57,730 nucleotides of DNA from a virus (Duplodnaviria; Caudoviricetes): positions 1 to 57,730 of the IMG/VR virus record IMGVR_UViG_3300037755_000790. One strand, 5' to 3'. Below the pieces are notes generated by a model. That model had not been told where the DNA came from. It did no database searches and saw nothing but the letters and a program-made list of their open reading frames with translations. This document shows, piece after piece, positions 2,955 to 55,000 of the stretch (the stretch's first letter is position 1; every line of letters begins with the position of its first letter). Both the position numbers and the translations under genes were made by a program.

Positions 2955-3593
2955 TCAGTCGTCCTCGCCGAGTCCGACCGTGGCGGCGGCGACAGCGGCA
3001 CCCACGTCACGGGCGACACCCGTCTCGGCGTACACGACGGTCGCCATGCTCAGACCGGAGTACGACGAGGCCGTTCCCTTCGACGTCCCGGCGACGCCGA
3101 CAACCTGCGTCGAGGCGCCGAAGCGGGAACCCTGCTCCCACGCCGTCACTCCCTGACCGAGGTAGACGATCGACCACTTGCCGGTCCTCTCCCGCTCGTC
3201 GAGGAGGGTGCGGATCTTCTCCCACGTCCACTCCCGCGACGAGTTCTCCCCACCGTCGGTCTGGATGACCAACAGGACCCGGTCGTCGTCGCCGAGGGTG
3301 GTGGCGGTGTCGAACTCGCCGACCGTCCGGCCGACCGCGTCGAGCAGCGCCGTCATGCCGGTGGGCGCGTAGTTGGCTTGGGTGAAATCGGGAACATCGG
3401 CCAACTCCGCGGCGACGCACAGCGGCATGAACCGGGTATCGAACACCGTCACCGACATGCGGTAGTCGGTGCCGTTCGCCTCAACGTCCTTGCGAAGGTC
3501 GGCGAGGTAGGTGTTGAACCCGCCCCGCACATCCTCGGCGAGGTCGTGCATCGAGCCGCTCATATCGGTGACGAACAAGACGTGCGTGGTCAC
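2955..3593 (-). CDS. vWA (MIDAS) domain protein
   Basis: DMSGSM, GMTALLDA and IQTDGGEN motifs. Confidence 0.85.
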   Translation of the reverse strand: MTTHVLFVTDMSGSMHDLAEDVRGGFNTYLADLRKDVEANGTDYRMSVTVFDTRFMPLCVAAELADVPDFTQANYAPTGMTALLDAVGRTVGEFDTATTLGDDDRVLLVIQTDGGENSSREWTWEKIRTLLDERERTGKWSIVYLGQGVTAWEQGSRFGASTQVVGVAGTSKGTASSYSGLSMATVVYAETGVARDVGAAVAAATVGLGEDD

Positions 3594-9064: not shown

Positions 9065-9205
9065 ATGCGACTGCCCCGACGTTCCACCCTCGTCGAGCGC
9101 CTCGCCCGCAGGATCGTCGGACTCCGAGGCAACCTCGTCGACGAGCTCGCCGGTTGGGTAGCGCGCGAGGAGTCCCGGCTGATGTGGCGCTGGCTGGAGA
9201 ACTAG
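9065..9205 (+). CDS. 46-aa hypothetical protein
   Basis: GGAGGAG RBS before the ATG. Confidence 0.5.
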   Translation: MRLPRRSTLVERLARRIVGLRGNLVDELAGWVAREESRLMWRWLEN

Positions 9206-39512: not shown

Positions 39513-40348
39513 GACGCCACCCGCTCGTCCTCGTCGGCGCTGCGCCGCTCGGCTTCACGTTGCGCTTCGATGATCGCCTGCTGCGCCATGTACCGGTCAT
39601 ACGTCAACGAGAACGTCTTGATGTGACCGAGCTTCACGGCCGTGTTCACCCATATGGGGATACCGGCGAAGCCAGCCCGGAAGCAGAACGTGATGTCCTC
39701 GGACATGCGCCGGCCGTAGAAGTCCGTCTCCTGGAACCAGGGGTACGCGTCAGAGAACCCCACCATCCCCGGCCGCTTCGGGGTTCGGAAGTCCCGCACC
39801 CTCGCCAGCACCGACCGGTGGATCAGCAGGCAAGCCGCGCCGGTGGCGTGCACCTCGAACATGGAGTCCAGCGGAAAACGCTTGTAGCGGATGAACTCCG
39901 GCCGCTCCAGCGTACCGACCACGTCATAGAGCGTTGGCTCCAGTTCCGCCGTCTCCGACAGGGTGAAACAAAGGCCGCCGATGATCGGGGCCTTGTCCTC
40001 GTCGGCGAACTCGAGGAGCTTCTCCACGGTGTCCGGCTCGAACGTCATGTCCGAGTCCAGGAACAGCAGCCACGGCGCCGAGGAGTACTTCAGGAACTTC
40101 TCGCACACCTCGTTACGGGCCGCGCTGACGTTCGCTGAGGACACCTGCGACACGAACCCGCCTCGGCCACCGGTCACGTGCTTAGGGCCACGCGTCGACT
40201 CGTAGTCCACGAGGCCCAGGACGGACTCCATGAACTCACCGTTCACGTGACTCGGGCGCACCCAGGCCACGACGACTCCCTCAGCCTCCGCCTCGGCCGG
40301 CTCGTCGCACGCGGACGCGTCGGTGGGACTTACTTCCACTTCGGACAT
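39509..40348 (-). CDS. glycosyltransferase (GT-A, DxD)
   Basis: ARN....FL, LFLDSDM, G..CLLIHR.V, SEDI.FC, GHIK. Confidence 0.85.
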   Translation of the reverse strand: MSEVEVSPTDASACDEPAEAEAEGVVVAWVRPSHVNGEFMESVLGLVDYESTRGPKHVTGGRGGFVSQVSSANVSAARNEVCEKFLKYSSAPWLLFLDSDMTFEPDTVEKLLEFADEDKAPIIGGLCFTLSETAELEPTLYDVVGTLERPEFIRYKRFPLDSMFEVHATGAACLLIHRSVLARVRDFRTPKRPGMVGFSDAYPWFQETDFYGRRMSEDITFCFRAGFAGIPIWVNTAVKLGHIKTFSLTYDRYMAQQAIIEAQREAERRSADEDERVAS

Positions 40349-40457
40349 TAGGGACCTCCAGGTAGGCGGGGTTCCCGGACTCCTGGCGTCCGGGAACCCC
40401 TTCCCACAGGGGCGACCTGTGGGGCACGTCTCGCTCGCTCGGATGAGAAAAGCGAAG

Positions 40458-40463
40458 TACTAT
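40458..40463 (+). promoter_or_regulatory. -10 box for the pentamer-array cassette
   Basis: TACTAT in an AT-rich patch 11 nt before the first GGC unit; -35 weak (TCGCTC). Confidence 0.5.
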
Positions 40464-40474
40464 GAAGCGACGGG

Positions 40475-40587
40475 GGCGTGGCATGGCAAGGATGGCTGGG
40501 CCGGGCGCGGCATGGCAGGGCGTGGCAGGCGCGGCTGGGCGTGGGTTGGCGGGGCAGGGATAGGCGAGGCGTGGCCTGGCGCGGCCC
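40475..40587 (+). repeat. GGY-NN pentamer array A (putative guide RNA)
   Basis: 23 units, mostly GGC+NN: GT AT AA (A)T TG CG GC AT AG GT [A] GC TG GT TT GG AG TA GA GT CT GC CC. Confidence 0.9.
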
Positions 40588-40632
40588 ACAAAAGAAACAC
40601 TTCGAACCGAACGGACCCAGGGAGGGCTAGCA

Positions 40633-41181
40633 GTGAGCACAGATCAGCAGGTCTCCGACGACGAGACAGCCGTCGAGACCGAACAGGTCGCCGAGACGCA
40701 GCACCAGCAGAAGGAGCGACTCTCGGCCGAGGAACACGACGCGCTCGAACGAGTCGCGAAGGACGACGTTGACGGGCTCATCCAGCCCGAGATGGTGGTG
40801 GAGATGGCATCGGACCCGGCGTCGCCGCTGCACAAACACTTCGAGTGGGACGACGGCAAGGCCGCACACGCCCACCGGATCGCTCAGGCCCGGTACCTCA
40901 TCGCCCGTTACACGATCACCCGCATCGACGAGGGGCCGAAGTACGTCAACATCACGATCCGCAAGGACGACGGATCGTCGCGCCGCGGCTACGTCGCCGT
41001 GGAACGGGCCGTCGCGGACCCCGACCTCTGCGGCCAGATCATGGCCGACGCGAAGCGAGGGATCGTCGCCTACCGCAACCGGCTCTCGGCCTTCGAACGG
41101 TCACGAGCGGTCGTCGGAGCGCTGGATGAGGCCATCGGTCGCATCGACGAGGTCGTCCAGGACCTGAGCGAGGCGGCTTAG
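40633..41181 (+). CDS. partner protein of the RAMP-like cassette
   Basis: GGGAGG RBS; P..VV..A.DP.SPLH..FEWDD..AA..HR..QAR.LI motif. Confidence 0.8.
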   Translation: MSTDQQVSDDETAVETEQVAETQHQQKERLSAEEHDALERVAKDDVDGLIQPEMVVEMASDPASPLHKHFEWDDGKAAHAHRIAQARYLIARYTITRIDEGPKYVNITIRKDDGSSRRGYVAVERAVADPDLCGQIMADAKRGIVAYRNRLSAFERSRAVVGALDEAIGRIDEVVQDLSEAA

Positions 41182-41183
41182 CC

Positions 41184-41786
41184 ATGCCCGAGATCAGGCT
41201 GGAAGTCGTTCAGCGGGAGGTAATCGACGTCGAGATCATCGGCGTGAGTCCGCTGATCCCGCACAAGTGGTCGGAGAAGTCGCTCCGCATGATGCGCGAG
41301 TCGCAATCCGGCAGCAAGGCCCGCAAGAAGCACGACCCGAAGGTGCCGGTCGACGAGGCCGAAGGGGCGCTGTACCGGCTCGCCGATGGTCGCCCGGCGA
41401 TGCCGGCGACGGCCTTCAAGGCGGCCATGGTCGGCGCGGCCCGACTGTTCCAAGGCGTCACGATGACCGCGCTCAAGGCGGCGGTGTTCGTGCACGGCGA
41501 AGGATCGGACCAACTCGTCCCGATCGAGGGCGAGATGACGCTGCGGGAGGACACGCCGCGCAACGCGACCGGGGTGGCGGACCTGCGGTACCGGTACGCG
41601 TTCTGGCCGTGGCAGACCACGCTCCAGATCGAGTACCTGACCGCGATGGTCGACAAGGACTCGGTCGTCGCGCTCGTCGACGCGGCCGGCAACGGCGGAG
41701 TCGGTGACTGGCGGCCGTCGGCCCCCAAGTCGCTCACGGGGACGTTTGGAAGGTTCCGGGTGGCATCACTCGGCGCTGTGGGATGA
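41184..41786 (+). CDS. RAMP/Cas7-like protein
   Basis: first strand I.G.SPL, P..AFK.A...AA helix, R.R..F..W, and C-terminal Gly-rich loop AG.GGVGDWRP.....G.FGRF.V. Confidence 0.7.
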   Translation: MPEIRLEVVQREVIDVEIIGVSPLIPHKWSEKSLRMMRESQSGSKARKKHDPKVPVDEAEGALYRLADGRPAMPATAFKAAMVGAARLFQGVTMTALKAAVFVHGEGSDQLVPIEGEMTLREDTPRNATGVADLRYRYAFWPWQTTLQIEYLTAMVDKDSVVALVDAAGNGGVGDWRPSAPKSLTGTFGRFRVASLGAVG

Positions 41787-41793
41787 TCGCCCG

Positions 41794-41975
41794 GACGAGG
41801 CGTGGCCTGGCTGGGTAGGGCGAGGCTTGGCAAGGCCGTCAAGGCCAGGAATGGCGCGGCGGGCTTGGCGTGGTAAGGCATGGCACGGCGAGGCGGGGCT
41901 CGGTAGGGCGTGGCAGGCTAGGCGAGGCTGGACTCGGCACGGCATGGCGGGTCAGGGCGTGGAATGGCACGGTGC
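41794..41975 (+). repeat. GGY-NN pentamer array B (putative guide RNA)
   Basis: 37 units: GA GT CT TG AG GA TT AA [C] AA CA AT GC [G] TT GT AA AT AC GA GG TC AG GT [A] TA GA TG TC AC AT GG AG GT AT AC GC. Confidence 0.9.
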
Positions 41976-42009
41976 AGGCCCCGGAGTTTCGGCTCCGGGG
42001 CCTGCTTCG
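41974..42009. terminator. hairpin between array B and the convergent MCP stop
   Basis: GCAGGCCCCGGAG-TTTCGG-CTCCGGGGCCTGC, perfect 13-bp stem. Confidence 0.8.
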
Positions 42010-42012
42010 TCG

Positions 42013-43720
42013 TTATGCCAAGGCCGTGAAGGCCGGAGTGGTGTGCAAGGTCAACATTCTGAAAGCCGCTGGGTCGACCGTGTCTGCCCCCACGCGCCAG
42101 AAGCCATACCACCCGGCCTGGCCGGTCGGCCGCTGGTTCGAGCCCTTGACCATCGGCTCGTACATCATCGAGAACCCGATACGATCGACGATGACGTATC
42201 TCTCGAAGTTGCCAGCAAGCAAAATGTTGGCCGACGTGGTGACCACCGAACCCATGGTGCTGCACTCGTACTGCGGCTGGCCGAGAAGCAGCGACGGGAC
42301 GCCCATGCCCATCGACGCCCAGAACGCGCTGCCGCCACTGGTATCGAACTGGCGGACCAGATTGTAAATCGTTTTGTTCGCAATCCACGACGCCTTGCTC
42401 GCGTCACGAGGACGGAGAGCGTTGGCGACCCGGTACACGTCGCCGGACACGAACGCCGTGATAGTGGCGGACGACACCAGGGACGCGGTGACGGCCGCGA
42501 CAGCGGCGACGATGCCGCGGGGGATGGTCGCGCCGGTGTTCCCGGTCGCGAAGGCGGCCGCTTCCAGGTTGGCCTTAGCGTCGGCCATGAGCATCGACAG
42601 CTCCGACGCGAAGCCCGAATCGGCGAGAACCTCGTAGGAGCCGACAACCCAAGCGTCGGCCTTCTTGGGTGTGATCGTGGGCTGCGTGAAGGTCGGGGAC
42701 GCGTCGGCGGCCTCGGTTCCTTCACCGGTCCATTCCGCCGTGACGCCGGCGCTCGTGACGCCGTTCCAGTCATCGGTGACGATCTGCTTGACCGTCGAGA
42801 TGGACCGGATCGGGTCCTGTGTACCGGCGTTCGTGAGGATGATCGTCGGGTCGAGCGTAAACGGGACGAGATACATTGTTGTTACTCGATACCTTGCGGT
42901 ACCGGGCCCGGTCATTTCTGCCGGGCTCTGCATCTTTTCCATCGATGCAGATCGGACTATATCTTCAGCTCCAGTCCCGACCAGCTATACCGGCTGGGCG
43001 GACCTCTCGGAGTTGCCACGCGTGTAGTCTCTACGGACTCCCCGGTACGGGTTGCCTCGGTATTCCCCTGCTTTGGTGGGGTTCACCGATACAGCGCGGT
43101 TTATTACCTCCGGGTCACCCGCAGAGGACGGCCACTCGACCGCCGTTGGCGCCGGTGAGGGACAGGGCGGCACGCATGAGCTGCCCCGGGTACGTCCCCA
43201 TCGACTGCCAGTACTCCTCGAACTCGCGGTGGTACTCGTCCGAGCCCGTCATCAGCAGGTGGCGGGCGATGCCCGACGTCTGCGGTGACGGCTTGTCGAG
43301 CAGCCGCATGACGTGCTCACGACCCGCGTCGTCCATGTGGCCGGGTGCGATCTCGACGGCCTTCTTCGCCCGCGAGATCATGTCGGCTTTCGGTGCGAGT
43401 TCGGCCCGGACGACCTCGTAGTTGTCGTACGGGTCGACGGTCCGCATGATCTCCGGTCCCTTGCGGGCCAGAGCGGTAGCTCCGTCGCCGGACTCGCGGT
43501 GTGGGCTGGCGAGGACGGCGCTGCGGACAGCCTCCGCCTTCGTCTCCCACGCCTCGGCCTTGGTCCGCTCGGCCTCGAGCTGAGCGAACTCGTCGGGGAT
43601 CTCCTCGGAGCGGGCGATGTCGTCGTCTTCCCAGTCCTGCTTGTCGGTCAGCTCCGCCAGTTCGGCGCGGAGCACCTCCATGTCGGCGGCGTACTCCGCT
43701 GACGTCTTTCGCTTAGCCAC
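42013..43720 (-). CDS. HK97-fold major capsid protein (exons 43139-43720 and 42013-42873; 480 aa spliced)
   Basis: splicing restores NGG|YLVP; W.GE, LLG.P, GNF..Y.IVDRIG, R.G....DP.AF; N-terminal delta domain. Confidence 0.92.
42874..43138 (-). mobile_element. group I intron (265 nt, no ORF)
   Basis: P1 GGCGGU/GCCGUC with U.G at the 5' splice site; core elements GUAUCGGUGAA, AAUACCGAG, GUAGAGACUA, AAGAUAUAGUCC; terminal G. Confidence 0.92.
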
Positions 43721-52000: not shown

Positions 52001-55000
52001 AGTGTCTCGGCGACGCCACGGGCCTTGTCCGCTCGGACTTGACGCTCCCGTGCGGCGTCCTCCAACGGGTTGACGTCAACGTCCGCTACGGTTCCCGGTC
52101 CGACACCCGGCGTACCAAGATCAGCGTCGGTGTCGGGCTTGTCCGGGACGCCGCCCTTGCTCTTCAGCTCCGGGTGACGTTCGCCGTAGCGTCGCGCCCA
52201 GTCGGCCAGCTGCGTCTCGCCACGGTTCCTGGCCCATGCCTCAAGGTCGTCGAAGTCGTCGACGGTGACGACCCGCTTGTCCCGCGTCGCTGTCTTCGGC
52301 CCCGCCGAGCCGGTACGTAGCGTGGTGACCGCCACCTTGCCGTCGCGGGTGCCGTGGACGAGGACGTCCCGACGTGTTCCGTCCTCGTCGCGGATCGTCA
52401 GCAGCGGAATCGGCGCCTTGTCCGGGTCGGTCTTGTCGACCTTGCGGTACGACTCCCGCGCGTCGGCGAGCAACGCGTCTTTGATGTCGTCGATCGTCGC
52501 GCCCCGCCGGAGCTTGATTCCCGGCCGGCCCTGGGCGACCTTGCGCAGCGACTCGCGGTTCGTGAACTCGCGTAGCGGATCGTCGTCGCCTTCACCGCGC
52601 AGCCACCCGGCGAGGGCTGTCGCGACCCGTTCGGCGACGGTTCGGAACTTCCCCTCCCGGCCACGTGGGTGCATGGCCTCCTGCGCCGGCGTCCAACCAC
52701 GTGTCGCGTCGGGGATCGGGGTCTCGTCGCCGTCAACCTCGTCGAGGCTCTCGTCGGCGGGGACCGACTTGTGATCTTCGGTGATGTACGCCATGTCCCG
52801 CAGCGCCTGCGCCACATCCCGCGCGTCGGCGTCGGCGAGCTCTACCTCGTGGTCGCCGAAGCGGACCGCCACTCCACCCTCGTACGGTTCGCTGGCGAAG
52901 GAGTGGCGGGTGTACGGCTGACCGGACTCGATCGCGTCAGCCCAACGCCGCGCCTCAACAGCGGACGGGACAGCGTGGATCGCGACGTCGGAACCCGAGT
53001 CCGACTCGACGGTGACGTCCCGCTCCCGGGCCACGATCCGGGCCCGGTCGCCGAACTCGACCGAGTCGACCTCCCGGCCGTACTCATCGTCAACCGACTC
53101 CGCCGGCAGCAGCGCCAACGGTGTGGTCGGGATCCAACCATGGCGGTAGCGGTACCCGCGGGTGATCTCTTCGACGTGGTCCCACACCCACGCCAACGCC
53201 CGCGTGGACACGTCGTCCTCGACGGGCTCCGCGTCCGTCGGCTCTTCGTGGGCTGGTGTGCCGTCGGAGTAGACAGGCCCATCGATGACAGGCTCACCAC
53301 CCTCAGCGGGTGGGGTCAGCTGCACCGACGTCAGGCCGGTGTGGACGAGGACCGTGATGTCGTCGTTGTGGACCATGTCCACCGAAGACGCCGGCGTGAA
53401 CCCCTCACGGGTGAGCGACGCGATAACCGACGCCCGCGTCTGCTGGATCTCGGCGAGGTCCTTGGCGTCCTCGTGCAGGAACGGGATGTCACGGGCGTCG
53501 TACCAGAGCCGGTGCTTCGGCTCCGGCGGCGGGAACAGGACCTGAATCGACCCGCACCAGTTCTGCCACAAATCCCGCATCGTGGTGTCGACGAAGTTGC
53601 GCTTCGCCGACACGTAGTTGCCGGCGTTCAGGCTGGAGCCCTGCATGCCCTCGGAGAACGACAGCAGCGTCGGGGGAACCCCGCCGCGATTCGCGATGCG
53701 TGTGTTGTGCGTGGGTACGAGGCCCTCGCCCGCGAGGAAGAGGTGGTCGGCGGTATCAACCGCGATACAGCGAACCGGGACGGACGCGACGGGCTCGATC
53801 GAGACCACCGACCGGGACCACGTGGATGGGTCGCCCGCCATTTCGCAGCGATCAACCTTGCGCGGGAGCAGGAACGGGATCCGGTCCATCTCCACGCGGA
53901 ACGTGACGAGCCAGTGCTCGCCCGTACGGGACCTGGCGTCCGGCTTGCGACGTAGCGAGGCGCGGTAGCCGAGCGAGCGAACGAGTTCCGCCACCTGCCG
54001 GCCCAGTGCCTCAAGTTTGCTGCTGAACTGGCACTGCCCCTGCACGCCGACAGTGCCATCCGTGTCCATGAGACCGCGTAGAAGTTCCAGGCGCTGCGCG
54101 GCAGATCCGCGCAGATACCGGCCGGGGACGTGCTTGTTCCCCAGTACGCCCTCCGCGCGGAGGGCGTGGAGCAGGCCGCCGGGGACGCCGATCACGTCGA
54201 CCTTGTCGGCAGCCGTCGACCATGATGTCGTCGTGTAGCCGCGGGCTTCCAACTCGCAGGCGATGAACTTCAGATCATCGCGGGCGCCGCAGATCGCGGC
54301 TCCCGCGGTCTGGCCATCGCCCAGCCAAGCACCCAATACATACGGATCTATCAGCAAGTCGGCGTCCGGCAGTTCCAATACCGGCGTACGTGGCAGCGAG
54401 AAGCGGTGACCACCGACACCGTTGGGGTACGGAGCGCCGAGGATATCGAACATCTCCTGCGTGGAGTACACCCGCTCGGCACGGCTCGCGGTACCCCTGT
54501 CGGTCGCAACCCACAGGTGTGTGGCGTCAGCAACGATCGACGTACGGTCCTTGAGCATCACCCGGTAGCAGGCTCGGCCCTCATGGATCGGACCGACCTG
54601 AAGCACCGTCCCCGGCCGCCCATCGCGGCCCATGACCTGATCGCCAACACGGACCTCGCCCATCGTGGTCCAGCCGGTCGGAGTCGGAATCGGCGTGTTA
54701 AGCGCCAGAGGTTCGCCCTTGCCCTGGACCGCGGCGAAGTCCATCTGCCGCATGTCGCCGCCGATGACCGTCACGTCCGCCCCGCCGGCCGTGTACAGGG
54801 TCTTGCCCACGTTCGCCGGGCCTTTGTGGGCGGCGTCCATCGCGTCGACGAACTCTTTGAACTGGTCCGGGGTCATCTGCTGCGGCACCGAAACGGCGAG
54901 GTTAGGCGATGCTGAGTTCTCAAAATAGGTGACTTTGTGCTCGCTGGCCTGCCTGTCGGCCTGGACCTCGCGGACGATCGGCGTGAGCCACGACATGCCC

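Follow-up and report, generated by a model that had tools for sequence, protein, structure and literature searches.

A VIPR-type cassette in a probable actinophage carries guides matching capsid genes of related phages and nearly matching its own

We analysed the whole of IMG/VR record IMGVR_UViG_3300037755_000790 (57.7 kb, 57,730 nt, G+C 67.5%; hereafter the window), in which an HK97-type major capsid protein (MCP) is encoded at 42013-42942 on the minus strand and is adjoined by a plus-strand cassette of two genes and two repeat arrays. Judged from its sequence, this cassette is a VIPR (Viral Interference Programmable Repeat) system. Three guide segments of the arrays, read two bases at a time with one base skipped, match the MCP gene of the carrier itself closely yet imperfectly, and one of them matches MCP genes of related phages exactly. 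Weighing this against the codons used by relatives, we consider it probable that the guides are aimed at the MCP genes of relatives, and that self-sparing, if there is any, comes about through the choice of guides and not through recoding of the carrier's own gene.

Results

A VIPR-type cassette convergent with the capsid gene

The cassette lies directly downstream of the MCP gene and convergent with it, inserted in opposite orientation between the capsid gene and the structural gene that follows (Table 1). Its arrays parse into 54 units, of which 52 carry GGN (43 GGC, 4 GGT, 4 GGA and 1 GGG) and two carry GAC and GTC, respectively. Neighbouring guides abut via 4-nt units (AGGC, TGGC, GGGC) without a shared 3′ tail, and segments A1 and B2, at four units each, fall below testable length. 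Readings of the arrays as a TRAP-like ring-binding RNA, as a translated glycine-rich repeat or as iterons were dropped given the codon-register matches described below. A scan of positions 40250-42100 for consensus promoters and terminators returned no site, the hairpin between array B and the MCP stop codon being missed by the terminator scan because it has no T tract.

Table 1 Features of the cassette, the MCP gene and the guide footprints (footprint scores are matched over read bases; mismatches are given as own codon vs guide bases)
Feature	Position	Strand	Description
vrRNA array A	40473..40585	+	NNGGC pentamers plus 4-nt register-shifting units (TGGC, AGGC); holds segment A3
Guide segment A3	40531-40585	+	11 units, in-register NNGGC run
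vap-like gene (putative accessory gene)	40633..41181	+	182 aa; phrog_15946 (function unknown), PHROG match E 1e-27
vipr gene	41184..41786	+	200-aa RAMP protein; phrog_4652
vrRNA array B	41797..41975	+	holds segments B1, B2, B3 and B4
Guide segment B3	41865-41914	+	10 units
Guide segment B4	41919-41973	+	11 units
GC-rich hairpin	41975..42004		separates array B from the stop codon of the convergent MCP gene; read from sequence
MCP exon 2	42013..42873	-	includes stop codon; HK97-fold Phage_capsid domain, Pfam PF05065, E 7e-39
B4 footprint	42239..42270	-	YECSTMGSVVT; 17/22; Ser AGC vs TC, Ser TCG vs AG, Val GTC vs AT
A3 footprint	42623..42654	-	AWVVGSYEVLA; 19/22; Val GTC vs TT, Ser TCC vs AG
B3 footprint	42830..42858	+	TLDPTIILTN; non-coding strand, antisense to MCP gene; 17/20; Thr ACG vs TC, Ile ATC vs GT, Leu CTC vs TT
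Putative group I intron	42874..43138	-	265 nt; Rfam RF00028; separates ...GANGG from YLVPF..., the N-terminal scaffold-like domain from the capsid domain
MCP exon 1	43139..43720	-	N-terminal scaffold-like domain; frame open from 43762, GTG at 43720 probable start

Homologues of the vipr gene were found in 34 phage records (27 from Mycobacterium and five from Gordonia phages) and in 17 IMG/VR loci. NNGGC arrays adjoined the vipr homologue, on the vipr strand, in all 20 loci examined, and a homologue of the 182-aa gene stood next to vipr in 13 of these 20. The vipr frame of the window is intact, and 26 columns are invariant across all 15 aligned homologues, a count that necessarily includes the residues of the window. 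Against PDB sequences, a profile built from the 15 vipr homologues matched a single entry, 36pp_D ("SUSP1 Vipr protein"), with E 2e-7; the match was confined to profile positions 131-179. The AlphaFold2 (AF2) model of Vipr (pLDDT 81.2) returned RAMPs of the Csm3/type VII Cas7 kind as its top Foldseek matches (E 9e-6 to 1e-4), from a library older than the Vipr structure entry. Pfam, NCBIfam and PADLOC yielded nothing for either gene, and the vap-like protein had no match among PDB sequences and, in its AF2 model (pLDDT 75.6), none in Foldseek at E ≤ 0.001.

VIPR systems are described in a 2026 preprint (bioRxiv 10.64898/2026.04.26.720920; companions 10.64898/2026.04.26.720927 and 10.64898/2026.10.15.759431), in passages of which they consist of Vipr, a minimal RAMP protein (RRM core, G-loop and thumb), and vrRNAs made of GGY/NN repeats, with an accessory vap gene (vap1-6) beside vipr. 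According to these passages, Vipr protomers bind the GGY in each YNNGG repeat of the vrRNA, and double-stranded DNA is paired by the NN bases, one base being skipped each time, mostly at the wobble position. Either strand can hold a target, without a protospacer-adjacent motif (PAM), and the same passages report no PAM-like second check (10.64898/2026.04.26.720920). The outcome described is transcriptional silencing of competing phages and satellites, the mechanism having been shown for the Escherichia coli phage SUSP1. Together, the Vipr profile match, the GGY/NN arrays and the one-base skip identify the cassette, at the level of sequence, as a VIPR system, that is, as a new actinophage member of an already-known kind. 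A figure legend of the first preprint names "staggered" arrays, whose adjacent vrRNAs share 1 nt, and the 4-nt units of the window are consistent with these. Since such arrays are allowed there, a conserved, structured 3′ tail as in the SUSP1 clade would mark one clade and not the whole family.

Three guides nearly match the carrier's own MCP gene in codon register

Segments A3, B4 and B3 each find their best match in the whole window inside MCP exon 2, and in all three footprints the skipped base is codon position 3. Read in this way, A3 gives GC TG GT TT GG AG TA GA GT CT GC, which corresponds to A W V F/L G S/R Y D/E V L A; B4 reads Y D/E C/W S T I/M G S/R V I/M T; and the reverse complement of B3 reads T L D/E P S V I/M F/L T K/N. 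Order-shuffled guides reached the observed score anywhere in the window in 0 of 2000 cases for A3, 24 of 2000 for B4 and 1 of 2000 for B3; confined to MCP exon 2 and the wobble-skipping phase, the corresponding counts were 0, 6 and 0 of 5000. Within the own genome, skips of 0 or 2 bases gave chance scores (13-16) and a skip of 3 found only the array itself. Three of the five segments with at least seven units map to the own MCP gene.

An initial annotation, made from the letters of the window, had proposed that the guides use a code that ignores the third codon base and are blind to wobble changes. All three footprints agree with this property, which is already published. The annotation had also extended the matched range rightwards to 43260-43276, an end that rests on a 6-unit match of A2 at chance level (9/12) and is not retained here. 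Among the mismatches, its account largely stands: the three serines covered by A3 and B4 all use the family opposite to the guide (TCC vs AG, AGC vs TC and TCG vs AG), and the remaining differences are conservative (V/F, V/I, I/V and T/S). Two leucines with CTN where the guide has TT were claimed as well; one is present, under B3 (own CTC), and the second was not found in the significant footprints. Overall, silent serine or leucine family differences make up 7 of the 11 mismatched bases.

The coincidence of three opposite-family serines out of three is not clearly beyond chance. Given the serine usage of the own MCP gene (5 AGY, 18 TCN), its probability is ~0.13, a value not corrected for post hoc choice of the pattern; if guides are instead drawn at random from the variants of 80 relatives (12/78 × 58/64 × 4/15), it is ~0.04, likewise post hoc and uncorrected.

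A second near-match of A3 in the own genome lies at 53698-53730 on the plus strand (18/22, 82%), inside a 2203-aa open reading frame (ORF) of the minus strand. It skips codon position 1, is absent from the contigs of three relatives (two of them complete) and is probably due to chance, though none of 2000 order shuffles exceeded 18.

The A3 guide has exact targets in the MCP genes of related phages

MCP relatives were collected by a profile search, which detected 213; the counts out of 80 given here refer to the best 80 of these 213, and most contigs are fragments. The window MCP shares 51-80% amino-acid identity with these 80 IMG/VR relatives and 45% with Gordonia phage MCPs, and a megablast of the region against phage records gave no match.

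The exact A3 pattern (22/22) occurs in four IMG/VR contigs, in each of them inside an MCP homologue of 481-534 aa and in codon phase, which supports the proposal of the initial annotation that related phages are targeted in their capsid genes. Among the 80 relatives, 36 match at least 90% of the bases read by A3 and four match all of them; B4 reaches at best 20/22, in the two closest relatives (78-80% amino-acid identity), and B3 at best 19/20, in three relatives. These best scores in relatives (22/22, 20/22 and 19/20) are obtained with a skip of one base, compared with 14-16 for skips of 0 and 2. With guides aimed at the capsid genes of relatives, a near-match to the carrier's own capsid gene follows. 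When 457 nine-unit windows, drawn from all arrays, were scanned locally all against all, the A3 matches were the sole result, and A2 and B1 had no match above shuffles in 1.13 Mb of comparison sequence.

These data also dispose of the idea that the repeat spacers resemble a capsid gene by chance. Taken alone, B4 is weak at base level, its 17/22 being reached in the window by the 24 shuffles mentioned above; three segments nevertheless match one gene of 0.86 kb, all in the wobble-skipping phase, and the exact 22-base pattern is found four times in IMG/VR, always in an MCP homologue. We regard the chance reading as refuted.

At most sites the carrier shares its codons with cassette-free relatives

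The initial annotation had interpreted the codon-family differences as swaps by which the own gene avoids self-targeting. This interpretation is not supported by the codons of relatives (Table 2), since the own codons are shared with cassette-free relatives at three of the four silent-swap sites, namely A3-Ser, B3-Leu and B4-Ser2, the fourth, B4-Ser1, being the exception. The vipr gene is present on the contigs of only 2 of the 80 relatives, and the guides of these two do not match this MCP family. Eight contigs that are at least 90% complete lack vipr, and no arrays were found in three relatives' contigs that were retrieved in full or in large part, two of which are 100% complete. Among the eight vipr-free genomes, A3-Ser is TCN in seven and B3-Leu CTN in all eight, which is the own state at both sites; B4-Ser2 is TCG in three and AGC in one, and B4-Ser1 is TCN in seven and AGC in none.

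Table 2 Guide-read bases at the mismatched sites of the own MCP gene and their states in relatives
Site	Guide	Own	Relatives (of 80)
A3 position 4 (Val)	TT	GT	TT 52, GT 0
A3-Ser	AG	TC	TC 66, AG 12
B4-Ser1 (position 4)	TC	AG	TC 58, AG 6
B4-Ser2	AG	TC	TC 11, AG 4, Gly 45
B4-Val	AT	GT	own state 44, guide state 24
B3 position 5 (Thr)	TC	AC	AC 80, TC 0
B3-Ile	GT	AT	own state 69, guide state 11
B3-Leu	TT	CT	CT 68, TT 11

The footprints as a whole behave in the same manner. With 53/64 matched bases summed over the three guides, the own gene lies at the median of the 36 relatives with at least 70% amino-acid identity (range 48-57; 11 higher, 25 equal or lower). The bases read by B3 are identical to those of the own gene in 52 of the 80 relatives, so that this guide cannot distinguish self from the majority of them. 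Changes of the own lineage at codon positions 1-2, counted in columns on which seven relatives agree, affect 2 of 15 footprint columns and 12 of 108 columns outside, with no enrichment (Fisher p 0.68), and own-specific silent family swaps occur in three columns outside the footprints (Leu, Arg and Leu).

For serine codons, the window was compared with two relatives, the closest of those with long contigs. Among conserved serines, 3/16 and 5/17 in the MCP gene differ in codon family, as do 31/110 and 15/82 in the other minus-strand genes shared with the same two relatives; these background sums leave out five plus-strand rows, two of which are evident shadow frames. A first hint that the MCP gene is unusually rich in serine family switching vanished with the other genes as control. 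Over all shared genes, the window and contigs G015 and G016 (26-81% amino-acid identity per aligned gene segment) use different families, TCN or AGY, at 18-28% of conserved serines, so that sharing a codon family says little about relatedness here. From these codon comparisons, the serine and leucine differences that would spare the own gene look like ordinary family variation, not recoding.

A putative group I intron in the MCP gene

The 265-nt stretch between the two MCP exons matches Rfam RF00028 over model positions 1-253 of 253, at 40 bits (E 6.8e-8) and thus short of the gathering score of 50. Splice sites of group I introns follow simple rules, the 5′ exon ending in U and the intron in G; here, exon 1 has the 3′ end ...GGCGGT (T) and the candidate intron ...CAATG (G). 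The predicted spliced product, ...GANGG/YLVPFTLDP..., equals the continuous ...ANGGYLVPFTLDP... of relatives and restores the conserved open frame. The homologue of exon 1 in a complete relative genome runs uninterrupted up to the capsid domain, and the MCP loci of 19 relatives held no Rfam group I intron at E ≤ 0.001. The splice-site bases and the restored junction fit an MCP gene split by a group I intron, with an Rfam score below gathering.

Guides and cassettes of other VIPR carriers

We also scanned 46 guide segments of at least nine units from eight other VIPR-bearing contigs, a ninth contig with only a 7-unit segment being left out. One segment scored above shuffles, that at position 9156 (plus strand) of contig G009, which matches 19/22 inside a vrRNA array of a cluster F mycobacteriophage (contig G001, position 36999, plus strand). 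Because this target is another contig's own G-rich array, the match was treated as compositional; it could reflect G-rich composition or a vrRNA-against-array match of the type described in passages of 10.64898/2026.10.15.759431.

In Mycobacterium phage Saal (Cheoctovirus), a VIPR cassette (L002, 2092-3549) lies between the antirepressor and excisionase genes, next to the immunity repressor, a position that would suit expression from the prophage or early in infection. Gene 43 of Gordonia phage Pipp (L004, 3111-3380) coincides with an NNGGC array at 3111-3339, and the 5′ end of Saal gene 51 (L002, 2333-2500) with an NNGGC array at 2092-2342; both genes are probably vrRNA arrays called as ORFs, since the repeats are nearly free of stop codons in all frames. 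An 84-kb provirus contig (L025, 2715-5996) holds a vipr relative flanked by four arrays of at least 268 units altogether (37, 157, 30 and 44), far more than the window.

Discussion

The interpretation we favour, and hold to be likely, is that the guides are aimed at the MCP genes of relatives, with self spared, if at all, by the choice of guides. By analogy with SUSP1, Vipr protomers would bind each GGY of the vrRNA and present the NN bases, these would pair with two of every three bases of double-stranded DNA, and transcription would be blocked by the filament so bound. A3, B4 and B3 would each be directed at the MCP genes of a different sub-clade of the carrier's relatives, and the own MCP gene matches the guides at 77-86% because it is a homologue of their targets. 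Only guides that mismatch the carrier's copy would be retained, with mismatches expected where a conserved protein varies at codon positions 1-2, that is, in the Ser and Leu (or Arg) codon families and in exchanges among V, I, F, T and S. At most sites the own gene does show the majority state of the family and the guide a minority variant.

Several observations weigh against this interpretation. The match of A3 is 86% in the own gene and no higher than 91% in most relatives; natural targets of VIPR are called at 80% or more of read bases in passages of 10.64898/2026.04.26.720920, and if tolerance is near that threshold, the own gene would be bound too. Exact matches were all that could be scanned in the large collections, so near-targets would escape such scans, and there the B4 pattern had none in the viral, metagenome and genome collections and the B3 pattern none in the viral collection; the TC of B3 at position 5 matches 0 of the 80 relatives. 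Exact scans with two guides from cluster F mycobacteriophage arrays also found nothing, and natural targets are shown for the window phage only. Finally, two rare own states on guide-read bases, Val GTC at A3 position 4 and AGC at B4-Ser1, fit escape of the own gene and are candidates for it, even if two such sites are not above the prediction from the gene-wide rate.

These two sites also speak for the opposite view, that selection recoded the own MCP gene, by conservative substitutions and by swaps between the Ser (TCN/AGY) and Leu (CTN/TTR) families, so that it evades the phage's own wobble-blind guides and relatives stay targets. AGC at B4-Ser1 is found in 6 of 80 relatives and in none of the eight near-complete vipr-free genomes, and Val at A3 position 4, a Phe-to-Val change, is unique (0/80); all three serines under A3 and B4 being in the opposite family, and 7 of 11 mismatched bases being silent, point the same way. 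Recoding is nonetheless unlikely, since the own codon family is that of the relatives at A3-Ser (66/80), B4-Ser2 (11 vs 4) and B3-Leu (68/80), the total match is the close-relative median, own-specific changes are not enriched in the footprints (2/15 vs 12/108 outside, p 0.68), silent swaps of the own lineage occur in three columns beyond them, serine switching is as common in untargeted genes, and the bases read by B3 equal the own gene in 52 of 80 relatives. A wider variant starts from six-fold codons (Ser, Leu, Arg) being the only silent escape from a wobble-blind code, and sees an arms race there within the MCP family: guides would have been retuned to minority variants (AG at A3-Ser, 12/80; AG at B4-Ser2, 4/80; TT at B3-Leu, 11/80), and the carrier would have escaped at B4-Ser1 (AGC, 6/80) and at A3 position 4 (Val, 0/80). 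We mention this scenario as a speculative one and doubt that it is correct.

The cassette might instead have been acquired horizontally from a phage with a different capsid, to which this MCP family was foreign, its guides having since drifted or only mismatched ones having been tolerated, so that B3 and B4 may be targetless. Only 2 of the 80 relatives' contigs carry vipr, with guides that miss this MCP family, B3 and B4 lack exact targets, and the cassette is an oppositely oriented insert, all of which would suit such a relic; A3, however, is still exact on four contigs, and vipr has kept an intact frame with its 26 invariant columns. This history appears rather improbable to us, although it overlaps with guide choice and is not cleanly separable from it with the present data. 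Autoregulation, the alternative raised by the initial annotation, in which partial matches would let the own VIPR complex bind the MCP gene weakly and so damp or time late expression, would explain why the cassette sits directly beside the MCP gene in convergent orientation, why three of five segments with at least seven units map there, and why A3 (86%) and B3 (85%) lie above the 80% threshold for NN bases given in passages of the preprint. Yet a regulator would be free to match its own target exactly, and the perfect or better matches are in other phages and not in the own gene. Moreover, in 10 other VIPR-bearing contigs none of 50 guide segments (at least nine units) matches its own genome above the shuffle maximum, and the cassette is not beside the MCP gene in other phages, for instance in Saal, where it adjoins the immunity region. 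We therefore regard autoregulation as very improbable, and return to guides directed at relatives as our preferred reading.

The system resembles published VIPR in several respects. Its RAMP protein, of ~20 kDa, is linked by sequence to SUSP1 Vipr; it also has a small gene of putative accessory role, arrays that flank the genes on both sides, GGY/NN pentamers, guides of 10-11 units with a wobble-aligned one-base skip, and targets that lie on either strand and in competing phages. It differs from SUSP1 VIPR in its actinobacterial host range, judged from the nearest phage relatives, and from the tailed SUSP1 vrRNAs in its staggered arrays, whose junction units are 4 nt long and which show no obvious conserved tail at the 3′ end. 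Whereas the published targets, as given in the main texts of the preprints, are satellite recombinases, prophage regulators and vipr genes, those of the window are MCP genes of the carrier's relatives. Likewise, the sets checked in 10.64898/2026.04.26.720920 are described in its passages as having no self match at 80% or more, whereas two guides of the window match the own genome at 85-86% of read bases.

Similarities extend to CRISPR-Cas systems. As in the class 1 backbone (Cas7, Csm3, Cmr4), a RAMP fold is used, with protomers that line the guide RNA and interrupt pairing periodically; unlike class 1 systems, the window has no CRISPR repeats, other cas genes or adaptation module, and unlike in CRISPR RNA (crRNA) guides, the information of a VIPR guide sits in two of every five bases, with the target read two in three. 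Phage-borne CRISPR arrays and self-targeting spacers offer a further parallel, in that a mobile element arms itself against competitors and must spare itself, the mismatch to self being a condition for guide retention. In contrast to the CRISPR self-targeting case, the competitor gene here has an essential homologue in the carrier, which leaves a difference of just 1-5 read bases, out of 20-22, between self and target.

What is already known is the code, with two bases read and the wobble base skipped, and the type of cassette; what is added here is an actinophage member, targets in the MCP genes of relatives, and near-self matches. Passages of the preprints state that escape from VIPR requires mutations that change amino acids. 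Swaps between the Ser, Leu or Arg codon families would be a possible silent loophole in a code thus described as closed to synonymous escape, and the one-gene pattern reported here does not demonstrate selection for such swaps. This loophole was not found in the parts of the preprints that were searched for it: 10.64898/2026.04.26.720920 never names serine (leucine, arginine and six-fold codons were not looked for there, and 10.64898/2026.04.26.720927 was not searched on this point), and the available text of 10.64898/2026.10.15.759431 names serine once, as a catalytic residue, and leucine, arginine and six-fold codons never. As for tolerance of mismatches, it is absent from the available text of 10.64898/2026.04.26.720927, and the two passages on "mismatch" in that of 10.64898/2026.04.26.720920 concern the search method.

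The window thus offers a natural example of a phage whose VIPR guides are aimed at an essential gene common to the carrier and its targets, with self distinguished from non-self by a handful of read bases. Two of these guides, A3 at 86% and B3 at 85%, exceed on the own genome the 80% level at which, according to passages of the preprint, natural targets are called, and the tolerance of VIPR to mismatches becomes a concrete, testable question.

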